From an uncultured Myxococcales bacterium (GTDB lineage Bacteria; Myxococcota_A; Polyangia; JAAYKL01): DNA of 64,000 nucleotides. The DNA lies in NCBI GenBank assembly GCA_964530995.1, contig CAZHCG010000002.1, positions 23,558 to 87,557 on the forward strand, in the 5' to 3' direction. Numbering within the stretch: position 1 is the first letter of the stretch; every line of letters starts with the position of its first letter. Below are positions 12,732 through 31,649 of the stretch, piece after piece. A model generated the notes under the pieces. That model had not been told where the DNA came from. It did not search any database and saw only the letters and a program-made list of their open reading frames with translations. Both the position numbers and the translations under genes were made by a program.

Positions 12732-14006
12732 TTGCTGAAAGGAACGCGTACCGTGCAAAAACGCCTGGTTATCATTCTGTGGACGACAGCTCTGTTGACA
12801 TCGACCGGTCTCGCCGCGGCCCAGGAGGGCGACGAGGAGGAACCGGAGGCCCCGGCGCTGGATGATCCCTACGCCACGGCCGAGGAGGAGCAGCCCGCCG
12901 CAGACGAGGAAGAGCCCGCCGCCGAGGAGGAGCAGCCCGCCGCAGGGGAGGGTGAAGAGGAAGAGGGAGAAGAGGAAGACGGCGAAAAGCCGTTCCGCCG
13001 CACGTTCGCCGGCACCTCTCTGAGCTGGGACAACTCCTTCACGGCCCGCTCGCTCGACAAGAACTACCAGTACTCATACAATCCAAACTACTCGATGGGA
13101 TTCGGCCTCGCTCCGGTGTGGAACATCTCCGACGAGGTCAGCCTGTCCACGTCGATCGGGTTCGACACCGAGCTGACCAACAGCGATTTTTCCAACAAGA
13201 AACGCGAGACGTTCTTCCGCGATATTCCGATCAACCTGGGCTACACGCACAGCTTCGACGTAAATGACGACGTCAAGTTCCGCACCGGGCTCGACGGCGG
13301 AGCGGTGCTGCCCACCTCGCGGATGTCACGCTACACCACGATGTACACCTCGCTCAAGCTGGGCACCCAGGCCACCTTCTCGTTCCCCAACGTTCTCGAA
13401 GGGCTTTCCCTGGGCTGGAGGCCGGGATTCACCAAGTACTTCCACGAGTCGGTGACTCCCAGGCCGGACGCCAACCCGCTGGACGAGACCCCGATTCCGG
13501 ACACCGAGCGAGCCACCTCGACGCGCTACCAGGCGCTGGCCTACGACGCCTACGCGATCAATCCCACGTTCAGCGTCGCCAACACGCTGAGCCTCAGCCT
13601 CGGTCTGGTCTCCACCTTGTCGTTCGCCTTTTCCTACACTCACAATTACATCTACAAGTACAAGCCGAGCGACATCGGCGGCTCGGACGACGGGATCTGC
13701 ACGGATCCGCAGGGCTGCGACGATCCGCGCGACACGGACCACAACGAGCGCGGGATCTACAGCCAGAGCTTCTCCTACATGCTGAGCTACGGTCTGCCCG
13801 AGCCGGTGCAGATGATCAGCCTCAACCTCGGCGCGATCACGGCATCCAACCAGCTCGCGCCCAGCGGCGAGTACCGCAAGCCGTTCTTCAACCGCGAGAC
13901 GGTGATCACCTTCGGTCTAAGCCTGGACATCGACGGCGCGATCCGCGCAGCCCAGGGCAAAGACGAAGAAGATGGACAGGAGGAGGAGGAGGGCGAGGAA
14001 GAGTAG
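12732..14006 (+). CDS. Outer-membrane beta-barrel protein with polyacidic N- and C-terminal segments
   Basis: Signal peptide (likely a GTG start near 12753, QKRLVIILWTTALLTSTGLAAA), a ~70-aa E/D/P-rich segment, then alternating beta-strands rich in Y/N/S/T/G. The C-terminus is DEEDGQEEEEGEEE. Confidence 0.6.
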   Translation: MLKGTRTVQKRLVIILWTTALLTSTGLAAAQEGDEEEPEAPALDDPYATAEEEQPAADEEEPAAEEEQPAAGEGEEEEGEEEDGEKPFRRTFAGTSLSWDNSFTARSLDKNYQYSYNPNYSMGFGLAPVWNISDEVSLSTSIGFDTELTNSDFSNKKRETFFRDIPINLGYTHSFDVNDDVKFRTGLDGGAVLPTSRMSRYTTMYTSLKLGTQATFSFPNVLEGLSLGWRPGFTKYFHESVTPRPDANPLDETPIPDTERATSTRYQALAYDAYAINPTFSVANTLSLSLGLVSTLSFAFSYTHNYIYKYKPSDIGGSDDGICTDPQGCDDPRDTDHNERGIYSQSFSYMLSYGLPEPVQMISLNLGAITASNQLAPSGEYRKPFFNRETVITFGLSLDIDGAIRAAQGKDEEDGQEEEEGEEE

Positions 14007-14030
14007 GCCCCCGCTCGCCCGCCGTCCCCG

Positions 14031-16186: not shown

Positions 16187-18676
16187 TTGCTTTTCGGCTC
16201 CGGCATGTCCCCTTTGCCCGCAATTGCTGTTTCCTTCGCCGCCGGTGTCGGCCTGGGCCTGCTGGCTCCAACCGCGGTACAGGGAGCGATCGCCGCGGCG
16301 GCGATCGGCGCGGTCGGATTCTCGCTGGCCAGACGAGCCGGGACGGGCCTGTTGCCGGTGGCGGCCGCGGTCGCGCTGGCGCTGGGCTGGCTGCGCGCGC
16401 CGACGCCCGAGGATCGGCCTCGCGCGCCGGAGCCGCGGGGGCCGTGCGAGCGCGTGCTGCGAGGTACCCTGGCGCGTCCCGTGCTGACGGTCGAGGGCCG
16501 CCACCGGCTCGCGATCGACCTCGACGCCTGCACGGGTTGTCTCGGCGAGCCGCGCGTCTCGGGATGGCGCCGCTGCGGCGGACGGCTCTACGTCACTGCG
16601 CTGGAAGGCCCGAGGCCTCGACTGCGGCAGGGCGACCTGGTGCGCCTGCGGAGCACTGCGCGGCCGTGGCGACGACCGGCCAATCCGCCCGGCGGAAAAC
16701 AGGCCGAAGAGCATCTCTACCTTTCGGCCGTCGTCCCCCACGCCGGGGCGATCGCGCTGGAGGAGACGCGCTCCAGATTCGCGACCCGGCGCGTCGACGA
16801 GCTCCGAGCCGGGTTGGCAGAGTTCTGGAGCGACGCTCTCGAGGAGGCTCCCTCGCGCCTGGCGCGCGCTCTGGGCCTGGGCCAGTCCGCCGCGCTCTCC
16901 AGCGAGCAGCGCGAGGCGTTCCGGCGGACCGGCACCGCCCACCTGCTGGCGATCAGCGGCCTGCACCTGGGACTGGTCGTGCTGGCGGTCTTCTGGCTGC
17001 TGCGCCTCGCGCTGCTGCGCGTGCCTCCGCTGGCCAGGCGCCTGGATCCGGCCCGGATCGCCGCGGCGGCGACGATTCCGGTCGCGGTCGCCTTCACCCT
17101 GCTGACCGGTGCCCGCACACCGACGATCAGGGCCTGCGCGATGGCTGTTTTCCTGCTCTCCGGGCGAGCTCTCGCTCAGCGGGGACGCGCGCTGGAATCG
17201 CTCTCGCTGGCCGGCGCTGCGCTGCTGGCCGCTGATCCGACCTCGCTCGTCGAGCCGGGCTTCCAGCTCAGCTTCGCGGCGGTGATCGCCTTTCTGCTGG
17301 TGCTGCGTCCCGTCGCCCGGACCGGGGATGATCTCGCGACCCTGCCCGGCGGAAACGACGCCGAGCAGGGAAGGCTGCGATCCGGGCTGCGGGCCGCGGC
17401 CGGCTGGTTTGCTCGACTGCTGCGCTCCACCCTCGCCGCCTCGGCAGCAACCGTTCCGCTGGTGCTGCTGCACTTCGATCGCGCCTCTGTGGTCGGCGTG
17501 CCGGCCAACCTGCTGGCCGTCCCGGCGGTCAGCCTGCTGGTGCTGCCCGCGGTGCTGGTCACCGAGCTCGCCGCGATCTTCTCTCCGGCGGCCGCCTCGA
17601 TCGCGGCGCGGGCGGTGGAGCCGCTGCTGGCCGTTCTCGAGGGATCGCTGCGCTCCCTGGCCGAGCTGCCGTGCGTGATCTCCGACCCGTCGCCAACGGT
17701 CGTGGTCGGGGTGTTCGCGCTCGCCGTCGCGGTGCTGCTGCTGCTCGCCGGGCGGCCCAGGCTCGCGGCGATACCGGGCGCCGCCTTCGCGCTGCTGATC
17801 TCGGCGGCGGTCGCGCTCGACGCTCCGAAGATCCCCCGCGATCGCCTCACCGTCGACTTCCTCGACGTCGGCCAGGGCGACTCCTCGCTGGTCACCTTCC
17901 CGCGCGGCGAGCACTGGCTGATCGACTGCGGCGGAACCGCCGGCCGCGATCCCGGAGGCGACGTGGTGACTCCCGTGCTGGAACGGCTGGGCGTGGAGCG
18001 ACTGGAGACGGTGGTGCTGACCCACCCGGATCTGGATCACGTCGCCGGCCTGCCCGCGATCGCGCGCGGCTTCGAGCTGGGAAGCATCTGGGACAACGGC
18101 CAGGGCGCGGACGAGGGCGCCCACCCGGCCTACGCCGAGCTTCTGGACATCGCCGCGCAAAAGAGCGTCCGGGTTTTTCGCACGCGCGAGATCTGCGGCG
18201 AGCACAGAGTCGGCGCGGCGAGCCTCGAGGTGCTGCACCCCTGCCACGACCGGGTCGGCTACGATCCCACCCTCGAGTTGAACGAAAACTCGATCGTCGT
18301 CCGCATCGACTACGGTCGAACATCGTTCCTGCTGAGCGGAGACCTCGGCGCGGCCGGCGAGCGGATTCTGCTGGCGAACCACGCCCGCCTGCAAGCCGAC
18401 GTGCTCAAGCTGGGGCACCACGGCAGCCGCAGCTCCTCGACCCCGGAGTTTCTCGAGGCGGTCTCGCCGGCGGTGGCGGTCGCCAGCTGCGGCCCCTGGA
18501 ACCGCCACGGGATGCCGCACCGCAGGGTCCGCCTCGCGCTCGCCGAGCGGACCGTCTCTCTGTTCCGCACCGATCGCCAGGGAGCGATCCGCGCCACCAG
18601 CGACGGCGACCGGATCGCAATCAGCGCCACGAGAACGACGGGGGAGGGGCTCGAGCGGAAGTTGACAGGTAGATGA
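16187..18676 (+). CDS. comEC: DNA internalisation-related competence protein ComEC/Rec2
   Basis: 829 aa. Polytopic N-terminal domain, a competence domain and a C-terminal metallo-beta-lactamase domain (LTVDFLDVGQGDSSLV, THPDLDHVAGL, LKLGHHGSRSSS). Confidence 0.85.
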   Translation: MLFGSGMSPLPAIAVSFAAGVGLGLLAPTAVQGAIAAAAIGAVGFSLARRAGTGLLPVAAAVALALGWLRAPTPEDRPRAPEPRGPCERVLRGTLARPVLTVEGRHRLAIDLDACTGCLGEPRVSGWRRCGGRLYVTALEGPRPRLRQGDLVRLRSTARPWRRPANPPGGKQAEEHLYLSAVVPHAGAIALEETRSRFATRRVDELRAGLAEFWSDALEEAPSRLARALGLGQSAALSSEQREAFRRTGTAHLLAISGLHLGLVVLAVFWLLRLALLRVPPLARRLDPARIAAAATIPVAVAFTLLTGARTPTIRACAMAVFLLSGRALAQRGRALESLSLAGAALLAADPTSLVEPGFQLSFAAVIAFLLVLRPVARTGDDLATLPGGNDAEQGRLRSGLRAAAGWFARLLRSTLAASAATVPLVLLHFDRASVVGVPANLLAVPAVSLLVLPAVLVTELAAIFSPAAASIAARAVEPLLAVLEGSLRSLAELPCVISDPSPTVVVGVFALAVAVLLLLAGRPRLAAIPGAAFALLISAAVALDAPKIPRDRLTVDFLDVGQGDSSLVTFPRGEHWLIDCGGTAGRDPGGDVVTPVLERLGVERLETVVLTHPDLDHVAGLPAIARGFELGSIWDNGQGADEGAHPAYAELLDIAAQKSVRVFRTREICGEHRVGAASLEVLHPCHDRVGYDPTLELNENSIVVRIDYGRTSFLLSGDLGAAGERILLANHARLQADVLKLGHHGSRSSSTPEFLEAVSPAVAVASCGPWNRHGMPHRRVRLALAERTVSLFRTDRQGAIRATSDGDRIAISATRTTGEGLERKLTGR

Positions 18677-18703
18677 GCGTGGGTAATACTACTATCAGTA
18701 GTA
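18662..18703 (+). promoter_or_regulatory. Putative mazEF promoter/operator (TTGACA -35, TAATAC -10, 17-bp palindrome TACTACTATCAGTAGTA)
   Basis: An AT-rich patch inside otherwise GC-rich DNA. A perfect -35, a 17-nt spacer, and a perfect inverted repeat overlapping the -10/+1 just upstream of the mazE start. Confidence 0.4.
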
Positions 18704-18717
18704 ATAATGGTATAACA

Positions 18718-18975
18718 ATGGCGAGCGTCAAGACAGCGATCTCCGTGCCGCGCGAAATCTTCGAGCAGGCAGATCTTCTCGCCGAGGAGCTGGGGATCTC
18801 TCGCAGCCGCGTCTTCGCGCTGGCGGTGAAGAGGCTGGCCCGCCTGTTGGAGAACCGTCGGTTGCTCGAGGAGATCAACGCAGCCCACGTCGACGGCGAA
18901 AGAGGCGAAAGCGAAAAGCGGCTCCGCGAAGCGATGCGCGACAAGCACCGCTTATTGTTGCGGGAACAATGGTAG
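18718..18975 (+). CDS. mazE: Type II antitoxin, MazE/ribbon-helix-helix-like
   Basis: 85 aa from the internal Met (MASVKTAISVPREIFEQADLLAEELGISRSRVFALAVKRL). Overlaps mazF by 7 nt. The ORF-track N-terminal extension is the AT-rich operator. Confidence 0.65.
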   Translation: MASVKTAISVPREIFEQADLLAEELGISRSRVFALAVKRLARLLENRRLLEEINAAHVDGERGESEKRLREAMRDKHRLLLREQW

Positions 18976-19328
18976 CCAGGCAGGGGGATATCTTCTGGAT
19001 AGATCTCGGTCGCCCGTCCGGGTCGGGTCCGGGCTACAGGCATCCGCATGTCGTGATTCAAAACGATCTGTTCAACAAGAGCGGGATTAGAACAGTGGTG
19101 GTCTGCGCCCTGACCACGAGCAGGAGGCTCGCCGCCTCGCCGGGAAACGTGCCGCTGAAGAAGAAGACGGCCAACCTGCCCAGGAGCTGCACGGTCAACG
19201 TCTCGCAGATCTTCACCGTGGACAGACGAGACCTTGTGGAGAAGATCGGCACCCTCTCTTCCGAGACGGTGCGCCGTATTCTGGACGGAGTCCGCCTTTT
19301 GACCGAGCCGCGGGACGTGGAGCCGTAG
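18969..19328 (+). CDS. mazF: MazF/PemK-family endoribonuclease toxin
   Basis: 119 aa. RGDIFWIDLG...GYRHPHVVIQND...RTVVVCALTTS matches the PemK/MazF fold. Confidence 0.8.
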   Translation: MVARQGDIFWIDLGRPSGSGPGYRHPHVVIQNDLFNKSGIRTVVVCALTTSRRLAASPGNVPLKKKTANLPRSCTVNVSQIFTVDRRDLVEKIGTLSSETVRRILDGVRLLTEPRDVEP

Positions 19329-19366
19329 CCGCTCGTTTCGCGGAGCGCTCGAACGCGATGCCCTTT

Positions 19367-19395
19367 TTTACAGGACGATCGCGCCTGGCTATAAT
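19367..19395 (+). promoter_or_regulatory. Near-consensus sigma70 promoter (TTTACA - 17 nt - TATAAT) giving a near-leaderless MNT-HepT transcript
   Basis: A perfect TATAAT 7-8 nt upstream of the ATG at 19402. Preceded by a GC-rich dyad plus T-run (possible mazF terminator). Confidence 0.45.
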
Positions 19396-19401
19396 CGAGG
19401 T

Positions 19402-19857
19402 ATGAGCTTCACCGAGCAGATGGCGCTGCTGCCGCGACCGGTGGCCGGAGCGGTCGAGGAGATGGTCGCGCGGGACGAGGTCGACCTCGTGCTCCTCTTC
19501 GGCTCGAGAGCGCGCGGAGAGCACGGTCCGATGAGCGACGTCGACCTCGCGGTGCGGACGAACGAGAACGTCGAGAACATTCACGATTGGAAGCTCGCGA
19601 CTCTGGCGCGACTGGCCGGACCCGTCCAGAGCGTAGACCTCGTGCTCCTCGAGCAGGCCTCCCCGGCCCTGCGCTACCGCGTCGCCCGGGACGGCCTCCC
19701 CCTGTGGACGCGGGACGAGCGCGCGCTCCACGCCTTTCGTTTCGAAGCCGTGCGCGACTGGCTCGACTTCGAGCCGGTGACGCGCGCCCACAACGCCGCC
19801 CTGGCCCGGCGAATCGCCGACGGGACCTTCGGAAAGGGGGAGCCGCGCGATGGTTGA
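19402..19857 (+). CDS. Nucleotidyltransferase (MNT-type antitoxin of a HepT/MNT pair)
   Basis: Pol-beta-type NTase motif LFGSRARGEHGPMSDVDLAV. Overlaps the downstream HEPN gene by 8 nt. Confidence 0.8.
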   Translation: MSFTEQMALLPRPVAGAVEEMVARDEVDLVLLFGSRARGEHGPMSDVDLAVRTNENVENIHDWKLATLARLAGPVQSVDLVLLEQASPALRYRVARDGLPLWTRDERALHAFRFEAVRDWLDFEPVTRAHNAALARRIADGTFGKGEPRDG

Positions 19858-20287
19858 TCCCGAGGTGATCCGCACCCGGATCGAGCACGCCGAGGAAGCG
19901 CTGCGCCGCCTGGCTGTCGTCCGCGCTCGTGGGCGTGAGGCCTTCCTCGCGAGTTGGGAGAATCGCGACATCGCCGAGCGGAACCTGCAAACGTTGATCC
20001 AGGCCGTGATCGACGTGGGCAACCACATCGTCACGGACGCCGGCTTGGGCGCTCCGGTACGCTACACCGACATCCTCGAGAAGATGTCGCGGGCCGGGGT
20101 GATCGCCGGCGACCTGGCGAGCCGGCTCGTGCCGGTCCTGGGCATGCGAAACGTGCTCGTCCACGAGTACGTCAAGCTCGAAGCCCAGAAGGTGTGGGAC
20201 GCGATCGCCGACACCTCGGCCATCGAGGAGATCATCGCCGCGGTGGCCGAGAGATGCCTGGCGCCCGGGGGTAAGGCGACATCCTGA
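19850..20287 (+). CDS. HepT-like HEPN RNase toxin (DUF86)
   Basis: 145 aa with the HEPN R-x4-HxY motif (RNVLVHEY) near the C-terminus. Confidence 0.8.
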   Translation: MVDPEVIRTRIEHAEEALRRLAVVRARGREAFLASWENRDIAERNLQTLIQAVIDVGNHIVTDAGLGAPVRYTDILEKMSRAGVIAGDLASRLVPVLGMRNVLVHEYVKLEAQKVWDAIADTSAIEEIIAAVAERCLAPGGKATS

Positions 20288-20301
20288 GGTATTCGTCGAG
20301 G

Positions 20302-20517
20302 ATGAGAACCACGCTGAACATCGACGACGCCCTTCTCGCACAGGCGAGTAGCCTCACCGGGATCTCCGAGAAGACCGCGCTCGTGCGCGCGGGCCTCGAG
20401 GCGCTCGTCGAGCGCGAGAACGCCCGGCGCCTGACGCGGCTCGGCGGAAACGCGACGAGGCCTCCTGAAAATCGACCTTGCATCGCCGGCCCGGCAACGT
20501 GTAGCTTTTCGGCCTGA
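20302..20517 (+). CDS. Orphan VapB-like ribbon-helix-helix antitoxin / putative transcriptional regulator
   Basis: 71 aa. MRTTLNIDDALLAQASSLTG is a typical RHH N-terminus of VapB antitoxins. There is no PIN toxin downstream; the next gene is the 989-aa ORF 44 nt away. Confidence 0.6.
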   Translation: MRTTLNIDDALLAQASSLTGISEKTALVRAGLEALVERENARRLTRLGGNATRPPENRPCIAGPATCSFSA

Positions 20518-20561
20518 ATCTGGGTGGCCTCGGGCGTTACTCGATCGAGCTTGCGTGTTCA

Positions 20562-23531
20562 ATGGGAAGAAGAAAGAGAAAACGCAAGAAGCGTAGCGGT
20601 GGCGGCGGCGCGGCGGCGATCGGCGAGCTGGGAACCTCGGCGGAGGAAGCGGCGCGCGTCGAGGATCTCTTCCGCGGCGGCGCTTTCAGGGAGGCCCTCT
20701 CGCGAGCCAAGGCGCTGCACCGGCGCGACCGTACGGACGAGACCGAGGATCTCGTCGCCCGGGCCTACTCGGCGCGCGCCGACGCGATGATCGCCTCGGG
20801 GATGAGAGTCGAGGCGAAGGCCCTGCTCGACGTGGTCGAGAGCGATTTTCCCCGGCACCGCGAGATCGCGCTCCGCGGCCGGGCCTGCCTGGCGGCTTTG
20901 ACAGGGAAGGTCGACGCCCTGCTCGCTCCCCTGGCCCGCGACGATTTTCCAGAGGAGAAGCGGCGCGAGATCGAGGACGACATCCGGCGCTTCGTGGTCG
21001 ATCCGCGGCAGGTGGCCGGGTGCGGGGTTCTGAGCCGCGAGCACCCGCTGCGCCTCGCCGCCGGCGAGCTGTCCGCGGCGCTGGAGGCGGCGACGAGCGG
21101 GCCGGTCGGAGAGGAGGAGCTGGCCTGTCCGAGCGTGTCCCGCCGCAGCCCGCTGGCGCCCTGGAAGCTGCTCGCCCGCGCGATCGCCGCCTTCTACCGG
21201 CGCGACGACGCTGCGTGCGAGGAGCTGATCGGGGCGCTGCCGCCCGAATGCGCGCCCGCCGCGATCGCTCCGGCTTTCGGCGTCCTACTCGGCGGAGCGC
21301 GGCCGCGAATCGCCACGCCGCCGGTCGTGGCGCTGGTCGACGCCGTGCTCGGCGAGCGCGCTCGGCTGCGCGACGCCCTCGCCGCCGTGGACGAAACCAT
21401 CGCCGCGGGCAAGCGCCGGAAAGTGGGGCGGGTGGTCGGAGCGGCGATGAAGGAGTGCGAGCGGAGAGCGCCCGAGCTGGCACGGCGCCTCGCACAGCGG
21501 ATCGCGGCGCGGTGCTTGCTGGCGTACGTCCCGTTCGGTCATGTCCGCCGAGCGCTAGGCGGTAGAATAACGGTCGATTCCGATTTCTGGCGGCTGTTCG
21601 TGCGCACCAACGAGATCCTGGCCGAGCGCCACGGCGAGGCCGTATCGCTGTGCAACGCCTGCGCAGGCCTGGAGGAGCTCCGCAGGCACTCCCAGGCCGA
21701 GGGCCGGTTCTCGAAGGGCGGTCCAGAGGAAGCGACCCTCTATCTGCGCATGATCGACCTGCTCGATTGGCCACCCGACGCCGTCGTCGAGGAGGCGCGC
21801 GCCGTGTTCGAGGCGGAAGGGGGTGGGGATGGCCTGGCCCATCTCTACGAGGGCCAACCACCTGAAATCCGGGCGCGCTCTTCGCTGGTGGACGGATGTG
21901 ATTCGTACTTCCTCTACCCGGAGCTAATCTGGGAACGCGCGTGCCGCGCCGATCCGGATCCCGAGATTTTTTGCCGCAGGTTGGAGTGGACAGCGGCCAG
22001 GAACGGGGACTGGAGAGCGCTGGACGAGATTGCGCTCGCCTGGCGCGACGCCGCACCCGACGACGTGCGACCGCTCCTCCATCTGGCGCGCTCCGCCGAA
22101 AAGCGGGGCTCGCTGAACAAGGCGCTCGGACATGTCGAGCGCGCGGAGACGATCGAACCCAACCGAGGCGACGTGCAAAGGGCGCGGAGACGGCTGCTCA
22201 CGGCTACGGCGCGGCGACACCTGACGCAACGCAAGCTGCACCTGGTCGAGCGCGACCTCGACCGCCTGGGGCGACTGCCCGGCGCGGAAGAAGCCGGGAG
22301 ACGCGCGATGACAACGGCGCTGCGCTTTTGCAAGCACATCCTGTCGGGCGATATCGAGAGCGCGCGGAGCGGACTGGTCGCTCTGTACGAGCTGCTGGGC
22401 GATGAGCTGGCAGCCGGGGCGCTGTGCGAGGCGACGGCCGAGCCGGACGGCGCGCTCCTCTCCGCGGCCGGAAATCTCCTGCCGGACGCGCCCGCTCTCC
22501 TAGCTCCCGGCTCGATTGCGCTGGCGGCCGCGCGGGTCTGTGGGATCGGGGAGGATCACGAGACTCCGCTGGGCCCGCCCCGGCAGTGGAGGAGGAGAAT
22601 TCTCGACGATCTGGCCGCCGGATCGGGCGCGCTGGGAGCCGCCGAGCTGGCGGCTCTCGCCCGAGCCGCAACGCGCGCGCGCCAGTACGATTTGGCCTAC
22701 GCGGCTTCGGGTGCCGGATTGGCCCTCGGACCGCCGCACACGGCGCGTTTCTTGCTGCTGCGGGCCAATAGCCTGCCGCCATCGAGGTGGCTGCGGATCT
22801 TGATGTGCCTGCGGGCCGCGCTCGGTCTGGCCCGCAGACAGGGCGACAACCAGCTCGTCGCCGAGATCTTGACCGCCCACCGCGAGAGCGGGCGCCGAAC
22901 GAGGAGCCCTGCGTCGCCGCCGGGAGGCGGCGTGCTGGAAGAGCTGGATTTCTCCCGGACGGACGAGGTTGTCCTGCGGGAGCGGGAGGCGGCCTCAAGG
23001 CCCTCGTCGACAGGCTACGATCCGACGGACTCCTGGTGGACCGAGGAGCTGGCGCCGTGCGACTGCCCTGCCTGCCGGCGCGCGCGGGGGGAGCCGCCAT
23101 TGCCGCAGCAAGAGGAGTTCGAGGACGTTTTCGACCAGGGGGACGAGGAAGATTCGGTCATCGATTCGTTGGATTCGCTGGGCGAGATCCTGATGTCCCA
23201 GCTAAACATGCCCCCGGAGATGCTGCACGAGTTCGTCGAGGAGATGATCGACCGCGAGGGCAACCCCATGCCCGACCTGCCACCTCGGCTGGCTGCCTGC
23301 ATGCTCGAGATCGCGATTCGCTTCGGCCCCCGGATGATGGAGAATCCCGACCTGGAAGAGCTGAAAAAACGAGCTCCCGATCTCCACAGGCGCCTGGGCG
23401 AGGCGATACGCCAGACCGAGGCTTCCGGAGAGCTTCCGACCATTTGGTCCGAATCGACAGGACGCAAGAAGAGAAAAGACAAGAAGAAAAAGAACGGAAA
23501 AAAGAAAAAGAGAAAGAGCCGCCGTCGATAA
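20562..23531 (+). CDS. Large (989 aa) predicted all-helical hypothetical protein with polybasic N- and C-terminal tails
   Basis: A long uninterrupted ORF with no competing gene on either strand, 27 nt upstream of the J-like gene. N-terminus MGRRKRKRKKRSGGGG; C-terminus RKKRKDKKKKNGKKKKRKSRRR preceded by an acidic stretch. A CDCPACRRARGE Cys knuckle is present. No known catalytic motif recognised. Confidence 0.6.
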   Translation: MGRRKRKRKKRSGGGGAAAIGELGTSAEEAARVEDLFRGGAFREALSRAKALHRRDRTDETEDLVARAYSARADAMIASGMRVEAKALLDVVESDFPRHREIALRGRACLAALTGKVDALLAPLARDDFPEEKRREIEDDIRRFVVDPRQVAGCGVLSREHPLRLAAGELSAALEAATSGPVGEEELACPSVSRRSPLAPWKLLARAIAAFYRRDDAACEELIGALPPECAPAAIAPAFGVLLGGARPRIATPPVVALVDAVLGERARLRDALAAVDETIAAGKRRKVGRVVGAAMKECERRAPELARRLAQRIAARCLLAYVPFGHVRRALGGRITVDSDFWRLFVRTNEILAERHGEAVSLCNACAGLEELRRHSQAEGRFSKGGPEEATLYLRMIDLLDWPPDAVVEEARAVFEAEGGGDGLAHLYEGQPPEIRARSSLVDGCDSYFLYPELIWERACRADPDPEIFCRRLEWTAARNGDWRALDEIALAWRDAAPDDVRPLLHLARSAEKRGSLNKALGHVERAETIEPNRGDVQRARRRLLTATARRHLTQRKLHLVERDLDRLGRLPGAEEAGRRAMTTALRFCKHILSGDIESARSGLVALYELLGDELAAGALCEATAEPDGALLSAAGNLLPDAPALLAPGSIALAAARVCGIGEDHETPLGPPRQWRRRILDDLAAGSGALGAAELAALARAATRARQYDLAYAASGAGLALGPPHTARFLLLRANSLPPSRWLRILMCLRAALGLARRQGDNQLVAEILTAHRESGRRTRSPASPPGGGVLEELDFSRTDEVVLREREAASRPSSTGYDPTDSWWTEELAPCDCPACRRARGEPPLPQQEEFEDVFDQGDEEDSVIDSLDSLGEILMSQLNMPPEMLHEFVEEMIDREGNPMPDLPPRLAACMLEIAIRFGPRMMENPDLEELKKRAPDLHRRLGEAIRQTEASGELPTIWSESTGRKKRKDKKKKNGKKKKRKSRRR

Positions 23532-23558
23532 CGCGGAGGATCACCGAGGTCGAAACAG

Positions 23559-23867
23559 ATGGACGAGCATGTCGAAAACGACGATCCCTGGGCCGTTCTG
23601 GGAGTAGGGCACGACGCCACATCTGACGAGATACGCGGCGCCTACCTGGATTGTGTACGGCGCAACCCGCCCGAAGGGAACCCCGAAGCGTTCGAGCGGA
23701 TTCGCGACGCCTACGAGGCCATCTCCGATCCTCGCCGACGGATCGAGCGTCTGCTGCTCGCGGACGATCCGGAAAGACCGCTGGCGGCCCTGCTCGACGA
23801 TCTGCCGGCCGAGCGCCGCTTCGTCGGTCTCGGCCCCTGGCTGGCTGTCATCGCGAAAGGAAAATAG
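23559..23867 (+). CDS. J-like domain protein lacking the HPD motif
   Basis: 102 aa. DPWAVLGV...SDEIRGAYLDCVRRNPPEGNPEAFERIRDAYEAISDPRRR aligns to J-domain helices I-IV, but HPD is replaced by NPP. There is no G/F region, zinc finger or C-terminal substrate-binding domain. Confidence 0.6.
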   Translation: MDEHVENDDPWAVLGVGHDATSDEIRGAYLDCVRRNPPEGNPEAFERIRDAYEAISDPRRRIERLLLADDPERPLAALLDDLPAERRFVGLGPWLAVIAKGK

Positions 23868-23871
23868 GGAA

Positions 23872-24657
23872 ATGGAGGGCGAACAGCGGGACAGAGTCGA
23901 CCAGACGGCCTCTCGCGTGGCGGAGTGGGTCCGTGCTGTCCTCGCCGACGAGGCACCGCCGGCCGGTGTCGCCCCCGAGATCCTATCGGCTGCCGAGAGA
24001 AACGGGGGCAAGGGCGCGGAAAAGGGCGGCGGTTACGATCTGCACTCGCTGTGGTCGGCGCTGACGACCCTGGCCCGGGAGATCGGCCTCCAGGGGCGAT
24101 CGTTCGACCGACTCCGCGGCGACCTCTCCTCCGTGGCAGGACTTTCCGAGCGCGTGGACGCCGCGCTCGCCGCCTGCCGTGAGAACCCTACCGGAGCACA
24201 CGCCGGCCGCGAGGGCGAAGCGCACGAGTCGGTCCGGCGGGAGATGGTCGAGATACTGATCGATCTGCGCGAGCGGCTCGATCGGAGCCAGAACACGGCG
24301 CGGCGCGGGCTGGCTGCGGCGCGGGAGTCGGTCGCGTCCTCGTGGGTGCTGCGCGCGTTCGGCACGCGCGCCGCCGGACAAACGATCGAGGCGGCCGAGG
24401 CGATTGCCGACGGCGATCTGCTGGGCCTGGAGCGGATCGAGGAGCTGTTGCGCGAGTGGGGCGTGACCCGGTCGAAGTGCGAGGGGCGGCCTTTCGATCC
24501 CGCACGCATGCGAGCGGTGGAGATCGTGAGGACGGACGCCGAACCGGAAGGCCGGGTGCTCGGAGTCGTCCGCAACGGGTACGAGTGGCGGGGTCGGGTG
24601 ATCCGGCACGCCGAAGTCGAGGTCGCCAGGCGGGAGACAGAGGGAGAAGAACGATGA
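23872..24657 (+). CDS. Divergent GrpE-like nucleotide-exchange factor
   Basis: 261 aa. The C-terminal beta-domain matches GrpE (FDPARMRAVEIVRTD...GVVRNGYEWRGRVIRHAEVEVAR), after a long helical region. Its stop overlaps the Hsp70 start (ATGA). Confidence 0.65.
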   Translation: MEGEQRDRVDQTASRVAEWVRAVLADEAPPAGVAPEILSAAERNGGKGAEKGGGYDLHSLWSALTTLAREIGLQGRSFDRLRGDLSSVAGLSERVDAALAACRENPTGAHAGREGEAHESVRREMVEILIDLRERLDRSQNTARRGLAAARESVASSWVLRAFGTRAAGQTIEAAEAIADGDLLGLERIEELLREWGVTRSKCEGRPFDPARMRAVEIVRTDAEPEGRVLGVVRNGYEWRGRVIRHAEVEVARRETEGEER

Positions 24658-26447
24658 GCGGTGAGACGACGGCAGGTATCGATCTGGGTACGAGCAACTC
24701 GGAGATCGCGATGTTCGACGGAGACCGGGTGCGGGTGCTCGCTGCGGACGGCGAGGAGATGCTGCCTTCCTGCGTGGGGCTGTCCGCCTCCGGTGAGCTG
24801 CTCGTCGGCGCGCCGGCGCGCAACCAGCACTTGCTCTACCCGGAGCGCACCGCGCGTGGAATAAAGCGGATGATGGGCACGGAAGACGAGATCGAGCTGG
24901 GCGATCGCCGCTTCAGCCCCCAGGAACTCTCCGCCCTCTTGCTGCGCGAGCTGGTCGAGCGGGCCGCGCGCGAGTTGGGGAGCGCCCCTCGGCGGGCCGT
25001 GATCACGGTGCCGGCCTACTTCTCCGACGCCCAGCGGCAGGCCACTCGCGAGGCCGGGGCGCTGGCCGGCCTGGAGGTCGAGCGCATACTCAACGAGCCC
25101 ACCGCAGCCTGTCTGGCCTACGGCCGCGGGGGCGCCGGTGAGACCGTGATGGCTTACGATCTCGGCGGCGGAACGCTGGACGTCTCGCTGGTGCGCCTGG
25201 AGGGCAACGTGACCGAGGTGCTCGCTAGCCACGGCGACAACCGGCTCGGCGGAGACGATTTCACCCAGATCCTGTTCAATCGCCTCGCAGACGTCTTTGC
25301 CGAAGAGCACGGCATGGATCTCCGCCGCGGCGATCCGGCCGCCCGTTCCCGCCTGTGGTGGGCGGCGGAGGCGGCCAAGCGCAGGCTCAGCGAGGAGCCC
25401 TACGCCGAGATCAGGGAAGACGGGCTCGGCCAGCGCGACGGCAAGCCGCTGCACCTCGAGCTGGAGATCGGCAAAAACGAGTACGACGAGATGATCCGCC
25501 CGCTGGTGGAAAAGACGATGGAAAGCGTGACCCGGGCGATGGACGACTCCGGGGTCGGGGCTCGCGAGCTGGACGCCGTGCTGCTCGTCGGCGGCTCGAC
25601 ACGGACCCCGTTGGTTCGTGAACTGCTGCAAAATCGCCTCGAGCTCGAACCACACGAAGAAATCCACCCCGATCTGTGTGTGGCGCTGGGCGCGGGTGTG
25701 CTGGCCTCGAGAATCGACGGGCGGGAGGTCTCGAATGTGCTCGTGGACGTCTCGCCGTACTCGTTCGGCATCTCGTTCCTCGGCGAGCGGGGGGGCGCCC
25801 CCTACCCCTACTGCTACAGGCCGATCATCCGCGCCAACTCGGCGCTTCCGGTCACACGCACCGAACGCTATACGACCGCAACCCCCTATCAGCGCGAGGC
25901 CCGCATCGACGTCTTCCAGGGAGAAGACGCGGACGCGCTGCGCAACATCCCGGTGGGATCGTTCACCGTCGAGGATCTGAACCCCAGGGAGGACCCCAAC
26001 GAAATCCTGTGCAAGATGAGGTTGGATCTCGACGGAATGCTGAACGTCTCCGCGATCGAGAAGGAGACCGGACACGCCAAGCACGTCGCGATAGACGGCG
26101 CGCTGGCCCGCAAGAGCGAAGCGGAGATCGAAGCGGCCCGGGAGCGGCTGGAGACCCTTTTTGGCGACCGCGTCGGAGAGGGAGAAACCGCTGGAGCGGC
26201 GCCCGAGGACGCCTCCGGGCGAGACGGCTCGTCGGCGAGCCCGGACTGGCGCGAGGCAGTGGCACGTTCCGATGCGCTGGTCGGACGCTCGCAACGTCTG
26301 CTCGAGAAGATGCACGCCGAAGACAAGGAGGAGGCGATCGACCTCCACGAGGCGATTCGCCACGCGGTCGAGTCCGGCGACGAGGCCGCCCTGAGCGCTG
26401 CGGTGCGGGAGCTGGAGGATCTCGTGTTCTTCGTGGAGGGCAGATGA
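24654..26447 (+). CDS. Hsp70-family chaperone (DnaK paralog, 598 aa)
   Basis: GIDLGTSNS, DLGGGTLDVS and VLLVGGSTRTPLV NBD motifs, plus a substrate-binding domain (VLVDVSPYSFGISFLGE) and helical lid. Start verified at the ATG overlapping the GrpE-like stop. Shorter than canonical DnaK and not in a dnaK-dnaJ context. Confidence 0.85.
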   Translation: MSGETTAGIDLGTSNSEIAMFDGDRVRVLAADGEEMLPSCVGLSASGELLVGAPARNQHLLYPERTARGIKRMMGTEDEIELGDRRFSPQELSALLLRELVERAARELGSAPRRAVITVPAYFSDAQRQATREAGALAGLEVERILNEPTAACLAYGRGGAGETVMAYDLGGGTLDVSLVRLEGNVTEVLASHGDNRLGGDDFTQILFNRLADVFAEEHGMDLRRGDPAARSRLWWAAEAAKRRLSEEPYAEIREDGLGQRDGKPLHLELEIGKNEYDEMIRPLVEKTMESVTRAMDDSGVGARELDAVLLVGGSTRTPLVRELLQNRLELEPHEEIHPDLCVALGAGVLASRIDGREVSNVLVDVSPYSFGISFLGERGGAPYPYCYRPIIRANSALPVTRTERYTTATPYQREARIDVFQGEDADALRNIPVGSFTVEDLNPREDPNEILCKMRLDLDGMLNVSAIEKETGHAKHVAIDGALARKSEAEIEAARERLETLFGDRVGEGETAGAAPEDASGRDGSSASPDWREAVARSDALVGRSQRLLEKMHAEDKEEAIDLHEAIRHAVESGDEAALSAAVRELEDLVFFVEGR

Positions 26448-26728
26448 GCGCCGACCCGCCGAGATCGCGGTGCCCGGTCTGCCGGGCGCGCTTTCGCGGC
26501 ACGACCGGGTGTTCCCGCTGCGGCGCGGATCTCGAGCCGCTGATGACGATCGAGATTCTGGCCTGGCGAGCCAGGCAGGCCGCGCGCGCGGAGCTGCTCG
26601 CCGGCTCTCCGTCGAAAGCGATGCGGTGGGCCGTGCGCGCCCAGAGACTGCGCGCGACAGGCGCCGGGCGGGATCTCGAGATCCTGGCTGCGGCGCTGCT
26701 GGAGGCGGAAGAGCTGCTCGGAGAATGA
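26444..26728 (+). CDS. Small zinc-ribbon protein translationally coupled to Hsp70
   Basis: 94 aa with CPVC-x13-CSRC followed by an Ala/Arg-rich helix. Its ATG overlaps the Hsp70 stop (ATGA). Confidence 0.5.
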   Translation: MSADPPRSRCPVCRARFRGTTGCSRCGADLEPLMTIEILAWRARQAARAELLAGSPSKAMRWAVRAQRLRATGAGRDLEILAAALLEAEELLGE

Positions 26729-26774
26729 CCGGCGCTCCGGGGAGACGGCAAGAGATTTTCGTCGGGCCTCGTAA

Positions 26775-26882
26775 TCAACGCTCGTAGTGGCCGCCGATCG
26801 CCAGGACGTGGACGGCTTCGTCGTCGAAGGCGCAGACGATCTTTCGGCCAACTCTGATTGAATAGTACGGCTTTCCCGACTG
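26775..26882 (-). pseudogene. RelE/ParE-family toxin remnant (C-terminal 35 codons)
   Basis: Minus frame QSGKPYYSIRVGRKIVCAFDDEAVHVLAIGGHYER* matches the RelE/ParE C-terminus (YRxRVGDYRxxYxxDDExxxVxVLxxGHR). An in-frame TAA lies immediately upstream, so the N-terminal two-thirds is missing. Confidence 0.45.
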
Positions 26883-26890
26883 TTAGTCGA

Positions 26891-26927
26891 GCACCGCGGC
26901 GAGCGTTCGCGACTATCGCGCTTGACC
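26891..26927 (+). repeat. 37-bp imperfect direct repeat, copy 1 (gcaccgcggcgagcgttcgcgactatcgcgcttgacc)
   Basis: 34/37 identical to copy 2 at 27919..27955, about 1.03 kb downstream. It lies in the 5' region of the RHH remnant. Confidence 0.6.
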
Positions 26928-27056
26928 TTTCCGAGGGATCTCCTCGAGCAGGCCGACCGCGTTGCCAAGAGGGAATCGCGCAGCCGCAGCGAGCTGGTCC
27001 GGGAGGCGCTGCGCGCATACCTCGACCGGCGTCCCGAGTCGGAGACCGTCCCGTGA
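26922..27056 (+). CDS. Small RHH (CopG/VapB-like) antitoxin, possibly with a TTG start, or an N-terminally eroded gene
   Basis: Frame ...LTFPRDLLEQADRVAKRESRSRSELVREALRAYLDRRPESETVP* is a typical RHH antitoxin. There is no in-frame ATG (the open frame extends back to 26862). Its stop overlaps the GTG of the vapC remnant (GTGA). Confidence 0.4.
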   Translation: MTFPRDLLEQADRVAKRESRSRSELVREALRAYLDRRPESETVP

Positions 27057-27154
27057 TCCTGGCCGATACCTAGATCTGGGTCGATTTCCTGCGGCGAGGC
27101 GAGCCGGCGCTCGCCCGAGCGGACGAGATGGGTCACTTGCGGAACACCAGATAG
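27053..27154 (+). pseudogene. vapC (PIN toxin) remnant with a premature TAG at codon 7, truncated after ~33 codons
   Basis: VILADT*IWVDFLRRGEPALARADEMGHLRNTR resembles the VapC N-terminus (MILADTSIWIDFLRG...). It has an in-frame TAG at 27071-73, and the frame ends in the AT-rich promoter of the next TA module. Confidence 0.45.
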
Positions 27155-27185
27155 TATAACATAATGGTTTCATAAAGGAGTTATT

Positions 27186-27452
27186 ATGGATCACAAGGAA
27201 ACGGCTACTCTCTCCATCAAGAAGGTTCCCGGCACGCTCAAGCGCCGCCTGGCACGCCGGGCCGCGGCCGCGCACCGCAGTCTGAACGGCGAGCTGCTCC
27301 ACATCCTCGAGTCGGCCGTGGCAGAGGCCCGGCCCGACGAGGAGGGGATCGAGGAACGGCTCGAGCGGCTGAAGGCCGTCCGGGAGGCGATCGGAGGCCC
27401 GGGGATGACCGACGAGCAAGTCGAAGCGGCCATCGCCGAGAAACGGCCTTGA
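27186..27452 (+). CDS. RHH antitoxin (FitA/VapB-like)
   Basis: 88 aa. TLSIKKVPGTLKRRLARRAAAAHRSLNGELLHILESAV is the RHH fold. Overlaps the PIN gene by 4 nt. An AT-rich promoter patch lies at 27140-27185. Confidence 0.7.
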   Translation: MDHKETATLSIKKVPGTLKRRLARRAAAAHRSLNGELLHILESAVAEARPDEEGIEERLERLKAVREAIGGPGMTDEQVEAAIAEKRP

Positions 27453-27853
27453 TCGTCGTCGATACCAACATCGTCGTGCCGCTCGTGATCCCGGGCGAGA
27501 GAACGGAGATCGTCGAGCGACTCTTGCGACGCGACCCGGCCTGGCGGGCGCCGCCGCTCCTGTTCTCGGAGCTGCGCAACGTGCTGCTCGCCTACTTTCG
27601 AAAAGGGCTGGCGACCCGTTCCCAGTGCCTGAACGCGATCGAGGCCGTCCGCGGGCTTCTCGACTCCCGGGCCGAAGACGAGCCGGATGACAGCCACGTG
27701 CTCCGGCTCGCCGGCGATTCGGGCTGCACAGCGTACGACTGCGAGTTCGTGGCCATGGCCGAGCGCCTGCGATGCCGGCTCGTCACCTGGGACCGGCAGG
27801 TGCTCGCGGCGTTCGGCGAGCGGGCCGTCACTCCCGAGGTCATTTGCGGCTGA
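27449..27853 (+). CDS. vapC: PIN-domain toxin VapC
   Basis: 134 aa. MIVVDTNIVV start, conserved acidic residues (D5, E in LFSELRNV, D in YDCEFVAMA). Confidence 0.8.
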   Translation: MIVVDTNIVVPLVIPGERTEIVERLLRRDPAWRAPPLLFSELRNVLLAYFRKGLATRSQCLNAIEAVRGLLDSRAEDEPDDSHVLRLAGDSGCTAYDCEFVAMAERLRCRLVTWDRQVLAAFGERAVTPEVICG

Positions 27854-27918: not shown

Positions 27919-27955
27919 GCACCCCGGCGAGCGTTCGCGACTATTGCGCTCGACC
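27919..27955 (+). repeat. 37-bp imperfect direct repeat, copy 2, overlapping the lspA stop codon
   Basis: gcaccccggcgagcgttcgcgactattgcgctcgacc. Positions 27941-27955 are the last codons and stop of lspA on the minus strand. Confidence 0.6.
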
Positions 27956-28576
27956 CGCCTTGTCCGCGGCGGGCTTCTTTGCGCGGTCGTCCTTCTTGCC
28001 CGGCAGCATCTGGAGGATCATCAACCCGATCCCGATCACGATCGCGGCGTCGGCCACGTTGAAGGTCGGCCAGTGGCGCTCGACTCCGCCCACGGTCACG
28101 TACCAGTCGACGAAATCGACCACGTAGCGGTAGACCAGCCGGTCGATCAGGTTGCCCACCGCGCCGCCCAGCACGAACGGCAGCGCGTAGAGCATCATCC
28201 GCTGCTCGGCCGGGGTCTTGCGGTACAGGTAGGGGATGAAGGCCGCCGCCAGCAGCGAGATCAGAATGAAAAAGGGGTAGCGGAACGACTCGGGCACGCG
28301 GCTCATCAGGCCGAAGGCGCTGGCGCAGTTCTCCACGTACTTGAAGTTGAACAGCCCGTCGATCACCTCGATCGACTCGCGGTGCCTCCGCACGAAGCGC
28401 TCGCGCGCGACCTCCTCGGCGCCGCTGGCGCAGACCGGGTACTCCTCGCCGCGGGCGTGGAAGGTCTCGTCGACCAGCGCGTGCAGGGCCCACTGCTTGC
28501 TGGCCTGGTCCGCCGCCACGGTCAGCGCGAACAGCACGACAAGACCGATCAGCGGCTTTTTCGCTCGTTTGGCCAC
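27941..28576 (-). CDS. lspA: Lipoprotein signal peptidase II
   Basis: 211 aa, four TM segments, conserved FNVADAAI and GAVGNLIDR motifs. Immediately downstream of ileS, the conserved ileS-lspA operon. Confidence 0.85.
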   Translation of the reverse strand: MAKRAKKPLIGLVVLFALTVAADQASKQWALHALVDETFHARGEEYPVCASGAEEVARERFVRRHRESIEVIDGLFNFKYVENCASAFGLMSRVPESFRYPFFILISLLAAAFIPYLYRKTPAEQRMMLYALPFVLGGAVGNLIDRLVYRYVVDFVDWYVTVGGVERHWPTFNVADAAIVIGIGLMILQMLPGKKDDRAKKPAADKAGRAQ

Positions 28577-28582
28577 GGCTGC

Positions 28583-31387: not shown

Positions 31388-31649
31388 GTAAACGAACCTC
31401 TATTGACAATCGGACGGCACTCGCTCTTCTCGCCGTTCCACCTCGCCCCGCCGGAGCGCAGCCCCGCGGCGGGGAGACGAAACATAGCACGTATCGCGGA
31501 TTTGGGTAGCTCCCGCAACTTTCCCGCAACTTTCACGGCTTTCGCAAACCATGGGGACAGATCGTCTCCAATCAGAACCAAATCCGTGGTACAAGTCGTC
31601 AGCATCAAAAGTGTAAAGTTGGCATCTGGCTGTACGGAGGTGATTCCCG

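Follow-up and report, generated by a model that had tools for sequence, protein, structure and literature searches.

Lysine-rich extensions at the ends of bacterial proteins have been described in several systems: the PAKKA repeats of Ku in Mycobacterium smegmatis and the lysine repeats of Streptomyces TopA mediate non-specific electrostatic binding of DNA (PMC3553676, PMC6821194), and the tail of the H1-like protein AlgP of Pseudomonas binds polyphosphate granules (PMC9239181). Here, we describe two polybasic tails on a protein of a different kind. They lie at the two ends of a protein of 989 amino acids (aa) encoded at positions 20562 to 23531 of a stretch of 64,000 nucleotides (nt), called the window in the following, from an uncultured Myxococcales bacterium (assembly GCA_964530995.1, contig CAZHCG010000002.1, positions 23,558 to 87,557). 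The gene, labelled BIG in our analysis, is the first of a five-gene cassette containing a dedicated Hsp70, and its product is referred to as the scaffold. In our reading the polypurine tracts at both ends of this gene encode inherited, disordered basic tails of a tetratricopeptide repeat (TPR)-like scaffold that heads an Hsp70 module, and these tails act as polyanion tethers; we assign this overall explanation a probability of roughly 55%. Like the tails of Ku, TopA and AlgP, several of which come from high-GC bacteria, those of the scaffold are (predicted) disordered, Lys-rich terminal extensions of variable length. However, the described tails are built from A/P/K repeat units on a known DNA enzyme or DNA-binding fold, whereas the scaffold tails are pure K/R, occur at both ends of a TPR-like protein without known nucleic acid function, and are paired with an acidic block. 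By direct reading they contain K, R, one D, one N, G and S and neither Ala nor Pro, and repeat units of the AKKA, SPKK or PAKKA type are absent. A linker-histone winged-helix domain was not found in the scaffold either (Pfam scan; the AlphaFold2 (AF2) model is an all-alpha solenoid), and the description as histone H1-like in an earlier note on this DNA holds for the composition only.

Accessory Hsp70 systems that resemble the cassette in part are known from bacteria as well. In Myxococcus xanthus, grpS-sglK (MXAN_6672-6671) form a bicistronic GrpE-DnaK2 operon (PMC11019930), which resembles the cassette in giving a myxobacterium an additional, non-heat-shock Hsp70 together with a GrpE of its own; the two were not taken as the same system, since grpS-sglK comprises two genes and has no J-like, scaffold or zinc-ribbon gene, whereas the cassette consists of five fixed genes. 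The GAP1-N2 GTPase conflict systems, found mainly in Actinobacteria and Firmicutes, combine a GTPase and an FNIII-repeat protein with HSP70, GrpE and DnaJ- or TPR-fused components (Kaur et al. 2020, PMC7159879). The cassette likewise unites a non-housekeeping Hsp70, GrpE, a J domain and TPR-like repeats, but an identity was rejected given its different taxonomic range and the lack of any GTPase or FNIII match among the five cassette proteins in Pfam and NCBIfam. A third comparison is offered by AtcJ of the AtcJ/AtcABC cold-adaptation network of Shewanella oneidensis, a short J protein with a functional J-domain and a 21-residue extension that works with DnaK (PMC6715715). Like AtcJ, the J-like protein of the cassette has a length of about 100 aa, with a J domain followed by a short conserved C-terminal extension. 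The extension of AtcJ reportedly binds AtcC, which is encoded in the same operon. The cassette differs in carrying PP[D/E] in place of HPD and in having its own Hsp70 and GrpE in the operon, and the NCBIfam ActJ model matches the J-like protein at E=0.009 only, far under its cutoff; AtcJ itself was rejected as an identification on account of this sub-threshold match and of its work with DnaK rather than with an operon-encoded Hsp70.

The earlier note had placed a dedicated Hsp70 next to the scaffold gene, which is right and can be extended, as the neighbors also include a J-like protein, GrpE and a small zinc-ribbon protein. The genes for the scaffold, J-like protein, GrpE, Hsp70 and the small protein follow each other in this order on one strand in every locus with a long enough contig, in about 70 loci (tblastn with the window proteins), and no conserved neighbor beyond the five genes emerged when 1639 flanking ORFs of about 75 loci were clustered. 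One European Nucleotide Archive contig (L087, 12500-15575) shows GrpE and Hsp70 split into many short called genes, which looks like assembly frameshifts and not like decay. PADLOC v2 defense-system profiles match none of the five cassette proteins. The scaffold family and its five-gene module appear to be undescribed in the literature searched and have neither a name nor a Pfam, NCBIfam or PADLOC model.

Both ends of the scaffold gene are indeed rich in purines, as had been claimed, with 85% at 20562-20594 and 92% at 23461-23519, and the segment 23459-23518 (93% purine) ranks first of all 60-nt windows in the 64 kb, ahead of runners-up that are poly-Glu codon runs of other genes. The tracts correspond to the K/R-rich stretches of the scaffold, which are codons 1-12 and the final 23 codons. 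K and R make up only 13.5% of the residues in the gene body, so that these runs are not a product of chance (P=6e-7 for at least 9 of 11 in the N tail; P=4e-12 for at least 18 of 23 in the C tail). The open reading frame (ORF) is a coding one, and its translation includes both tails. The GC content at third codon positions (GC3) of the frame is 0.82-0.84, a signature of coding sequence; no start codon occurs between the upstream in-frame stop and 20562, and the next in-frame ATG is codon 76, a start that would drop helices conserved in the family. Moreover, the first 12 residues are the same in the ortholog L001 from a Polyangia metagenome-assembled genome, which has 83% identity overall and only 2 synonymous changes in this segment, and distant family members using other codons also show N-terminal tails of the form M-x-x-(K/R)n. 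Minus-strand ORFs over the tract (e.g., 23015-23620, poly-Phe/Leu) were discarded as spurious, as a GC3 filter retains the plus-strand frame alone. The GC content, earlier given as about 70% for the genome, was measured at 67.5% for the window. The other long polypurine tracts of the window, 12954-12979 and 13949-14008, are supplied by an ORF at 12732-14006 with an apparent signal-peptide N terminus, whose product is of Glu-rich low complexity near both ends (EEEGEEEDGE at one, EEDGQEEEEGEEE at the other).

The tails belong to a large protein family. A word-indexed search yielded 69 relatives of the scaffold with E down to 0, all annotated as hypothetical and none with a Pfam domain, and an exhaustive HMMER search, in which 1.84 billion representatives were scanned, retrieved 834 clusters at E<=1e-3, 362 of them at E<=1e-30. 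The scaffold itself has no match in sequence searches of Pfam, NCBIfam, PADLOC and the PDB apart from a sub-threshold Pfam DUF5646. A scan of GTDB species genomes, seeded with the pattern of the conserved SRRSPLAPWK loop, returned 128 loci, of which 80 were kept. The titles of these 80 records contain six phylum-level names (Acidobacteriota, Desulfobacterota, Planctomycetota, Myxococcota (Polyangia), Sumerlaeota, and Hydrogenedentota), and Acidobacteriota form the majority, with Bryobacteraceae, Solibacteraceae, Terriglobia, Thermoanaerobaculia and, as a cultured carrier that makes genetics feasible, Edaphobacter aggregans DSM 19364 (locus L065). Defining a basic cluster as at least 6 K/R in a 12-residue window, we found such a cluster at the C-terminus in 79%, at the N-terminus in 25% and at both ends in 20% of 194 full-length members; the median length is 968 aa with and 886 aa without the N tail. 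The clusters stay at the same place across several phyla and over a GC3 range of 0.50-0.96. On a rough neighbor-joining tree the state of the N tail requires 22 parsimony changes compared to 41.5 (minimum 34) after shuffling, which suggests that it has for the most part been passed on within clades and was gained or lost on some occasions. Because the clusters span phyla and the N tail is clustered by clade, the tails are to be seen as old family traits and not as recent or foreign additions, which speaks against the horizontal acquisition proposed earlier. That homologs might uniformly lack the tails, or that the ORF might be non-coding or the tails an artifact, had also been considered; the C-terminal cluster in 79% of the members and the coding GC3 show otherwise, and the tails are very probably functional traits of the family rather than artifacts.

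The codon choice in the tails, which had been described as a use of rare AGA and AAA codons, was compared to a reference set of 26 high-GC3 genes of the window. The claim is borne out for AGA, which makes up 5/11 of the Arg codons in the tails compared to 33/896 in the reference genes (3.7%; p=4e-5) and 8/114 in the gene body (7%; p=0.002). It does not extend to AAA, which accounts for 5/16 of the Lys codons in the tails vs 14% in the reference (p=0.08, not significant), AAG being the majority codon; family-wide, AAA is not enriched in the C tails either (0.377 vs 0.378, 79 loci). In the same 79 loci, AGR represents 26% of the Arg codons in the C tails (p=2e-11) and 28% in the first 20 codons (p=2e-6), compared to 13% in the gene bodies. 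Lys-coding tracts are purine-only because Lys codons are all-purine by definition, and the frequent AGR among the tail Arg codons is explained by an exchange of K and R at basic positions via single AAR<->AGR transitions. Between the window and L001 all four of the K/R swaps pair AAR with AGR, and both encode the conserved terminal RRR by CGN. Extended to 28 related tail pairs, this swap-position test, which is more direct than the cruder Lys-adjacency test that it replaced, finds AGR as the Arg codon at 25/26 K/R-swap positions vs 90/280 (32%) conserved-Arg positions. The local GC content, which falls to 0.53-0.57 at the 3' end of the gene, follows as well, because Lys codons impose a low GC. 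At the 5' end the minimum free energy of the segment from -40 to +60 is -31.7 kcal/mol for the native sequence and -38.6 +/- 3.3 kcal/mol for 300 synonymous recodings drawn from the codon usage of the window, 98% of which are more stable; the unpaired probability of the start region is 0.60 compared to 0.36 +/- 0.06, and only 0.3% of the recodings reach the native value. No clear Shine-Dalgarno sequence was found on reading upstream of 20562. Initiation of translation is well known to profit from a start region that is open and rich in A, and the A-rich 5' codons are predicted to leave the start site free of folding in this GC-rich mRNA, which has no obvious Shine-Dalgarno sequence. Drift between K and R together with start accessibility is probably a sufficient explanation for the codons of the tails, with no need for a special mechanism.

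The structure of the scaffold was predicted by AF2 from an alignment of 68 sequences with a mean predicted local distance difference test (pLDDT) value of 86.7. The model is all-helical with about 45 helices arranged in hairpins, and pLDDT values <50 are confined to residues 1-21 (N tail), 787-790, 850-868 (acidic block), and 968-989 (C tail), so that disorder is predicted for the acidic block as well as for the two tails. Foldseek against the PDB returned 39 matches at E<=1e-3 with TPR and related helical-repeat scaffolds on top, the best being IFT-A subunits, Ski3, Ctr9, APC3/6/8, Naa15, and the TPR domain of OGT at E of about 1e-5. The predicted fold class, stacked helical hairpins in a TPR-like superhelix, is clear, and no specific relative emerges. 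Among eukaryotes, the TPR scaffolds Naa15 (NatA), SRP72 and Ski3 use basic patches or Lys-rich tails to keep an enzyme or chaperone on RNA or the ribosome, and the J protein Zuotin, which is not a TPR protein, can be compared with them. The scaffold resembles the former in combining a long helical repeat with basic regions, and Naa15 and Ski3 are among its fold matches, but the likeness is generic and lacks sequence homology. Towards the C-terminus, the family conserves an order of CxCxxC motif, acidic block, short helical domain and basic tail, with CxCxxC present within the last 250 residues of 60% of the full-length members. The loop SRRSPLAPWK holds 3 of the 12 strictly invariant columns of the scaffold (P197, L198, and W201), and its remaining positions are at least 90% conserved. 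With a hydrophobic core and basic flanks, this loop could be a chaperone-binding or partner site.

The chaperone components show features of their own. About 99% of J domains carry HPD (PMC13580251). In the cassette, [FYH]PP[DE]R stands in its place in 76 of the 77 J-like orthologs, and the window copy reads NPPE. The C-terminus of the J-like protein forms a conserved peptide, RRFVGPxPWL or RRFVGxGPWL (RRFVGLGPWLAV). The Hsp70 scores under the NCBIfam equivalog cutoffs of both DnaK and HscA and is therefore regarded as a paralog; its ERILNEPT motif we take to contain the equivalents of R167/N170 of Escherichia coli DnaK, and NVLVD to be the interdomain linker. The window Hsp70 terminates in DLVFFVEGR (26417-26447), and an ending in ELLFFVEG[KRQ] at the extreme C-terminus does not vary among about 60 orthologs of several phyla, suggesting that the TPR-like neighbor docks onto this peptide. 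In eukaryotic systems, TPR co-chaperones such as Hop/Sti1, CHIP and Tom70 dock onto the C-terminal EEVD of Hsp70/Hsp90. The cassette recalls this arrangement in pairing a TPR-type protein with an Hsp70 of strictly conserved C-terminal peptide; it differs in that the peptide is hydrophobic, no carboxylate-clamp TPR was identified, and the putative interaction is bacterial and operon-encoded, which makes the parallel a lead. The small zinc-ribbon protein has no Pfam or NCBIfam match, and its CPVC..FRG...CSRCGADL motif is kept at >=80% across 68 orthologs. ATGA stop/start overlaps join GrpE to Hsp70 (24654-24657) and Hsp70 to the zinc-ribbon gene (26444-26447) and thereby imply translational coupling.

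Taken by themselves, the tails are an ordinary feature, namely charged, disordered ends with explainable codons, and it is their context that is of interest: a widespread family, with 834 representative clusters, is tied to an Hsp70 module of five genes, which breaks the textbook pattern twice, by a non-HPD J domain and by an invariant Hsp70 C-terminal peptide next to a TPR-like partner. The scaffold may be the adaptor, or the main client, of the dedicated Hsp70, and it may dock the chaperone via the LLFFVEG of the Hsp70 C-terminus and the RRFVGPxPWL of the J-like protein. The basic tails, balanced by the conserved acidic block, would then serve as electrostatic tethers to a polyanion, a role to which we give somewhat less than even odds. 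Nucleic acid, such as RNA, the ribosome or the nucleoid, would be the most probable polyanion, given that bacterial proteins with Lys-rich ends of low complexity generally bind DNA/RNA through them (PMC6821194; PMC3553676); polyphosphate, membrane lipids and an intramolecular acidic-basic latch are less likely alternatives. More tentatively, the cassette as a whole could be a self-contained Hsp70 machine in which the scaffold docks the chaperone and is anchored by its tails on RNA, ribosomes or the nucleoid, or alternatively a new conflict/defense module. If the former is true, bacteria would have in it an equivalent of the Hsp70 systems associated with ribosomes or nucleoproteins, and the non-HPD J-like protein would imply a different triggering, or a restraint, of Hsp70 ATP hydrolysis. 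As a tethered adaptor, the scaffold would provide a simple bacterial model for targeting Hsp70s to one place or client.

Several observations weigh against the explanation by tethers on a TPR-like scaffold. The template modeling scores to TPR structures are low (0.1-0.2), and the Pfam TPR family is absent at E<=0.01 in all 32 members scanned. The tails contain no recognizable nucleic-acid-binding domain, and we infer their binding to a polyanion from composition and precedent. As 75% of the members do not have an N tail, the latter is dispensable for the core function. Many Acidobacteriota members end in a short acidic/hydrophobic DDxDFPF or GSLF after the basic cluster, which hints at peptide docking rather than simple tethering. 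On the side of the codons, the pairs of the swap test are not phylogenetically independent, so that its p-value is overstated, although the effect points in the direction expected from the genetic code, and a preference of AGR for Lys-adjacent positions inside the tails is not significant. Furthermore, the neighborhoods of the cassette range from toxin-antitoxin or defense-island-like to plain metabolic or housekeeping and give no functional hint.

The acidic block leads to a rival explanation, in which the tails pair with this block in the same or in a neighboring molecule. Such an electrostatic latch could result in auto-inhibition, head-to-tail oligomers or a condensate, opened or dissolved by the dedicated Hsp70, with the scaffold mainly as its client. 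Blocks with at least 8 D/E per 15 aa occur in the last 220 residues of 75% of the members vs 4% in the first 600 residues, so that block and basic tail (79%) are both C-terminal, both disordered by prediction and both common. In addition, the net charge of the C tail is retained between the window and L001 (+17 vs +16) despite diverged sequence, and the invariant loop SRRSPLAPWKLL resembles an Hsp70-binding peptide with its hydrophobic core and basic flanks. The segment with net charge -11 is real, but the idea that the tails flank it has to be given up, since about 95 residues separate it from the C tail downstream and 840 from the N tail. Against the latch, most members with an acidic block have no N tail. 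Neither structural nor covariation support was found for a contact between the charged blocks, and we regard the latch as unlikely, while noting that it is compatible with polyanion tethering and not exclusive of it.

Alternatively, binding of the polybasic ends to acidic phospholipids could fix the Hsp70 module to the cytoplasmic membrane on its inner face. Polybasic terminal clusters are a known electrostatic device for membrane targeting (PMC10771482), and some homologs add hydrophobic F, L, and W past the basic cluster. The tails of the window are devoid of any hydrophobic or amphipathic element, however, the cassette encodes no membrane protein, and no transmembrane or lipidation signal was seen, which together render membrane anchoring improbable.

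The C tail of the window is exceptional within the family and raises the question of neutral expansion. Its last 35 residues contain 18 K/R compared to a family median of 9, matched only by L001, with which it also ties as the longest among the 79 loci compared. Tandem Repeats Finder reports arrays with 65-93% matches, and in the C tract imperfect repeats with a period of 15 with 2 copies (93% match) and a period of 24 with 2.2 copies (78% match). The alignment of homologs for tail length that had been proposed was carried out: length varies among relatives, and the tail of L001 is longer by two codons (+6 nt, in frame), the sole length difference seen in a comparison that remained the only close one because searches of Joint Genome Institute metagenomes by protein or conserved intergenic DNA pattern gave no close relatives for strain-level tail variation. 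Short in-frame duplications of Lys-rich units, or slippage, fit these data as the way in which the C tail was lengthened in this lineage; in this local sense the proposal of slippage-generated tails survives, whereas a recent origin does not agree with their age. That the tails are functionless, slippage-prone filler tolerated at disordered ends would account for the imperfect repeats, the differences in length and sequence between relatives and the outlying length of the window C tail, but it is hard to reconcile with a basic cluster that persists across phyla and GC3 levels, with an N tail that changes only synonymously at 83% overall identity and with the conserved charge. Nor does it explain why Lys provides 0.67 of the basic residues in the C tail despite strong GC pressure, compared to 0.12 in the gene body (15 Lys, 114 Arg), a share about 1.9 standard deviations above the family trend for its GC3. 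We therefore rate neutral expansion as quite improbable.

For the phase variation and programmed frameshifting suggested earlier, no support emerged: the longest A run in the tract is 6, perfect short tandem arrays or long homopolymers as in phase-variable contingency loci are absent from it, and an Rfam scan of 19500-27500 on both strands gave no element at E<=1, including frameshift elements. The C tail ends 9 codons past the last Lys run, and the ORF in another frame at 22787-23626 is without coding signs, as far as can be said with no dedicated frameshift analysis. A recent acquisition, horizontal or by slippage, of H1-like nucleic-acid-binding tails, possibly phase-variable or frameshifted, is thus very hard to maintain, as the Lys-rich, histone-like composition, the AGA enrichment, the 3' GC dip and the internal repeats on which it draws are set against tails ancestral to the family, a dip that is a Lys-codon effect, the lack of a linker-histone domain, AKKA/SPKK repeats or Rfam element, and short A runs without a perfect array and with the one length difference in frame.

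Table 1. Features of the scaffold gene, its cassette and the upstream region (positions in the window).
Feature	Position	Strand	Evidence
Candidate promoter TTGCAT, 18-nt spacer, TAGCTT	20478..20507	+	weak evidence; inference only
Scaffold protein gene (BIG), 989 aa	20562..23531	+	ORF, translation, GC3, homologs
N-terminal polybasic tail MGRRKRKRKKRS	20562..20597	+	net charge +9; AGA/AAG/AAA codons
TPR-like alpha-solenoid core (predicted), residues ~26-780	20637..22901	+	AF2, Foldseek, conserved columns
Near-invariant loop SRRSPLAPWK, residues 193-202	21138-21167	+	alignment
CDCPAC cysteine motif, residues 833-838	23058..23075	+	alignment
Acidic block (predicted disordered) EEFEDVFDQGDEEDSVIDSLDSL, residues 851-873, net charge -11	23112..23180	+	pLDDT <50 at 850-868
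Small C-terminal helical domain (predicted), residues ~866-965	23157..23456	+	AF2 helices, pLDDT ~80-95; conserved 'PPE...' module
C-terminal polybasic tail GRKKRKDKKKKNGKKKKRKSRRR and TAA stop	23460..23531	+	net charge +17
J-like protein, 102 aa	23559..23867	+	Pfam DnaJ 1.5e-8, 35.1 bits vs cutoff 27.8
NPPE motif replacing HPD in J-like protein	23664-23675	+	translation
GrpE-like nucleotide-exchange factor, 261 aa	23872..24657	+	Pfam GrpE 4e-15; NCBIfam GrpE models
Dedicated Hsp70, 597 aa	24654..26447	+	Pfam HSP70 5e-116
Small zinc-ribbon protein, 94 aa	26444..26728	+	conserved motif, then helices

Upstream of the scaffold gene, the region 20470-20510, which includes the candidate promoter of Table 1, is nearly identical to positions 300-388 of the L001 locus. 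A consensus scan called no promoter, the candidate included, and terminator-like sites are no commoner than in shuffled sequence.

Toxin-antitoxin genes are found on both sides of the cassette, within 18673-20287 and 27449-27853. Upstream, these are a MazF/PemK protein with a small ORF that has no Pfam match and is a possible antitoxin (18673-19328), followed by an MNT nucleotidyltransferase with HepT (19402-20287); a PIN-domain protein lies downstream of the cassette. At other loci the neighbors are YoeB/YefM and a patatin (L001), ParE/RelB (L004), or DruA and transposases (L088), and the cassette of L086 sits among leuCD and OmpA genes. Finally, the GC3 of the cassette genes (20562-26728) is 0.78-0.84 compared to 0.93-0.95 in the neighboring ORFs 28583-31399 and 31644-35804 (region 27941-35804), a difference that could be due to lower expression or to a different history of the cassette.

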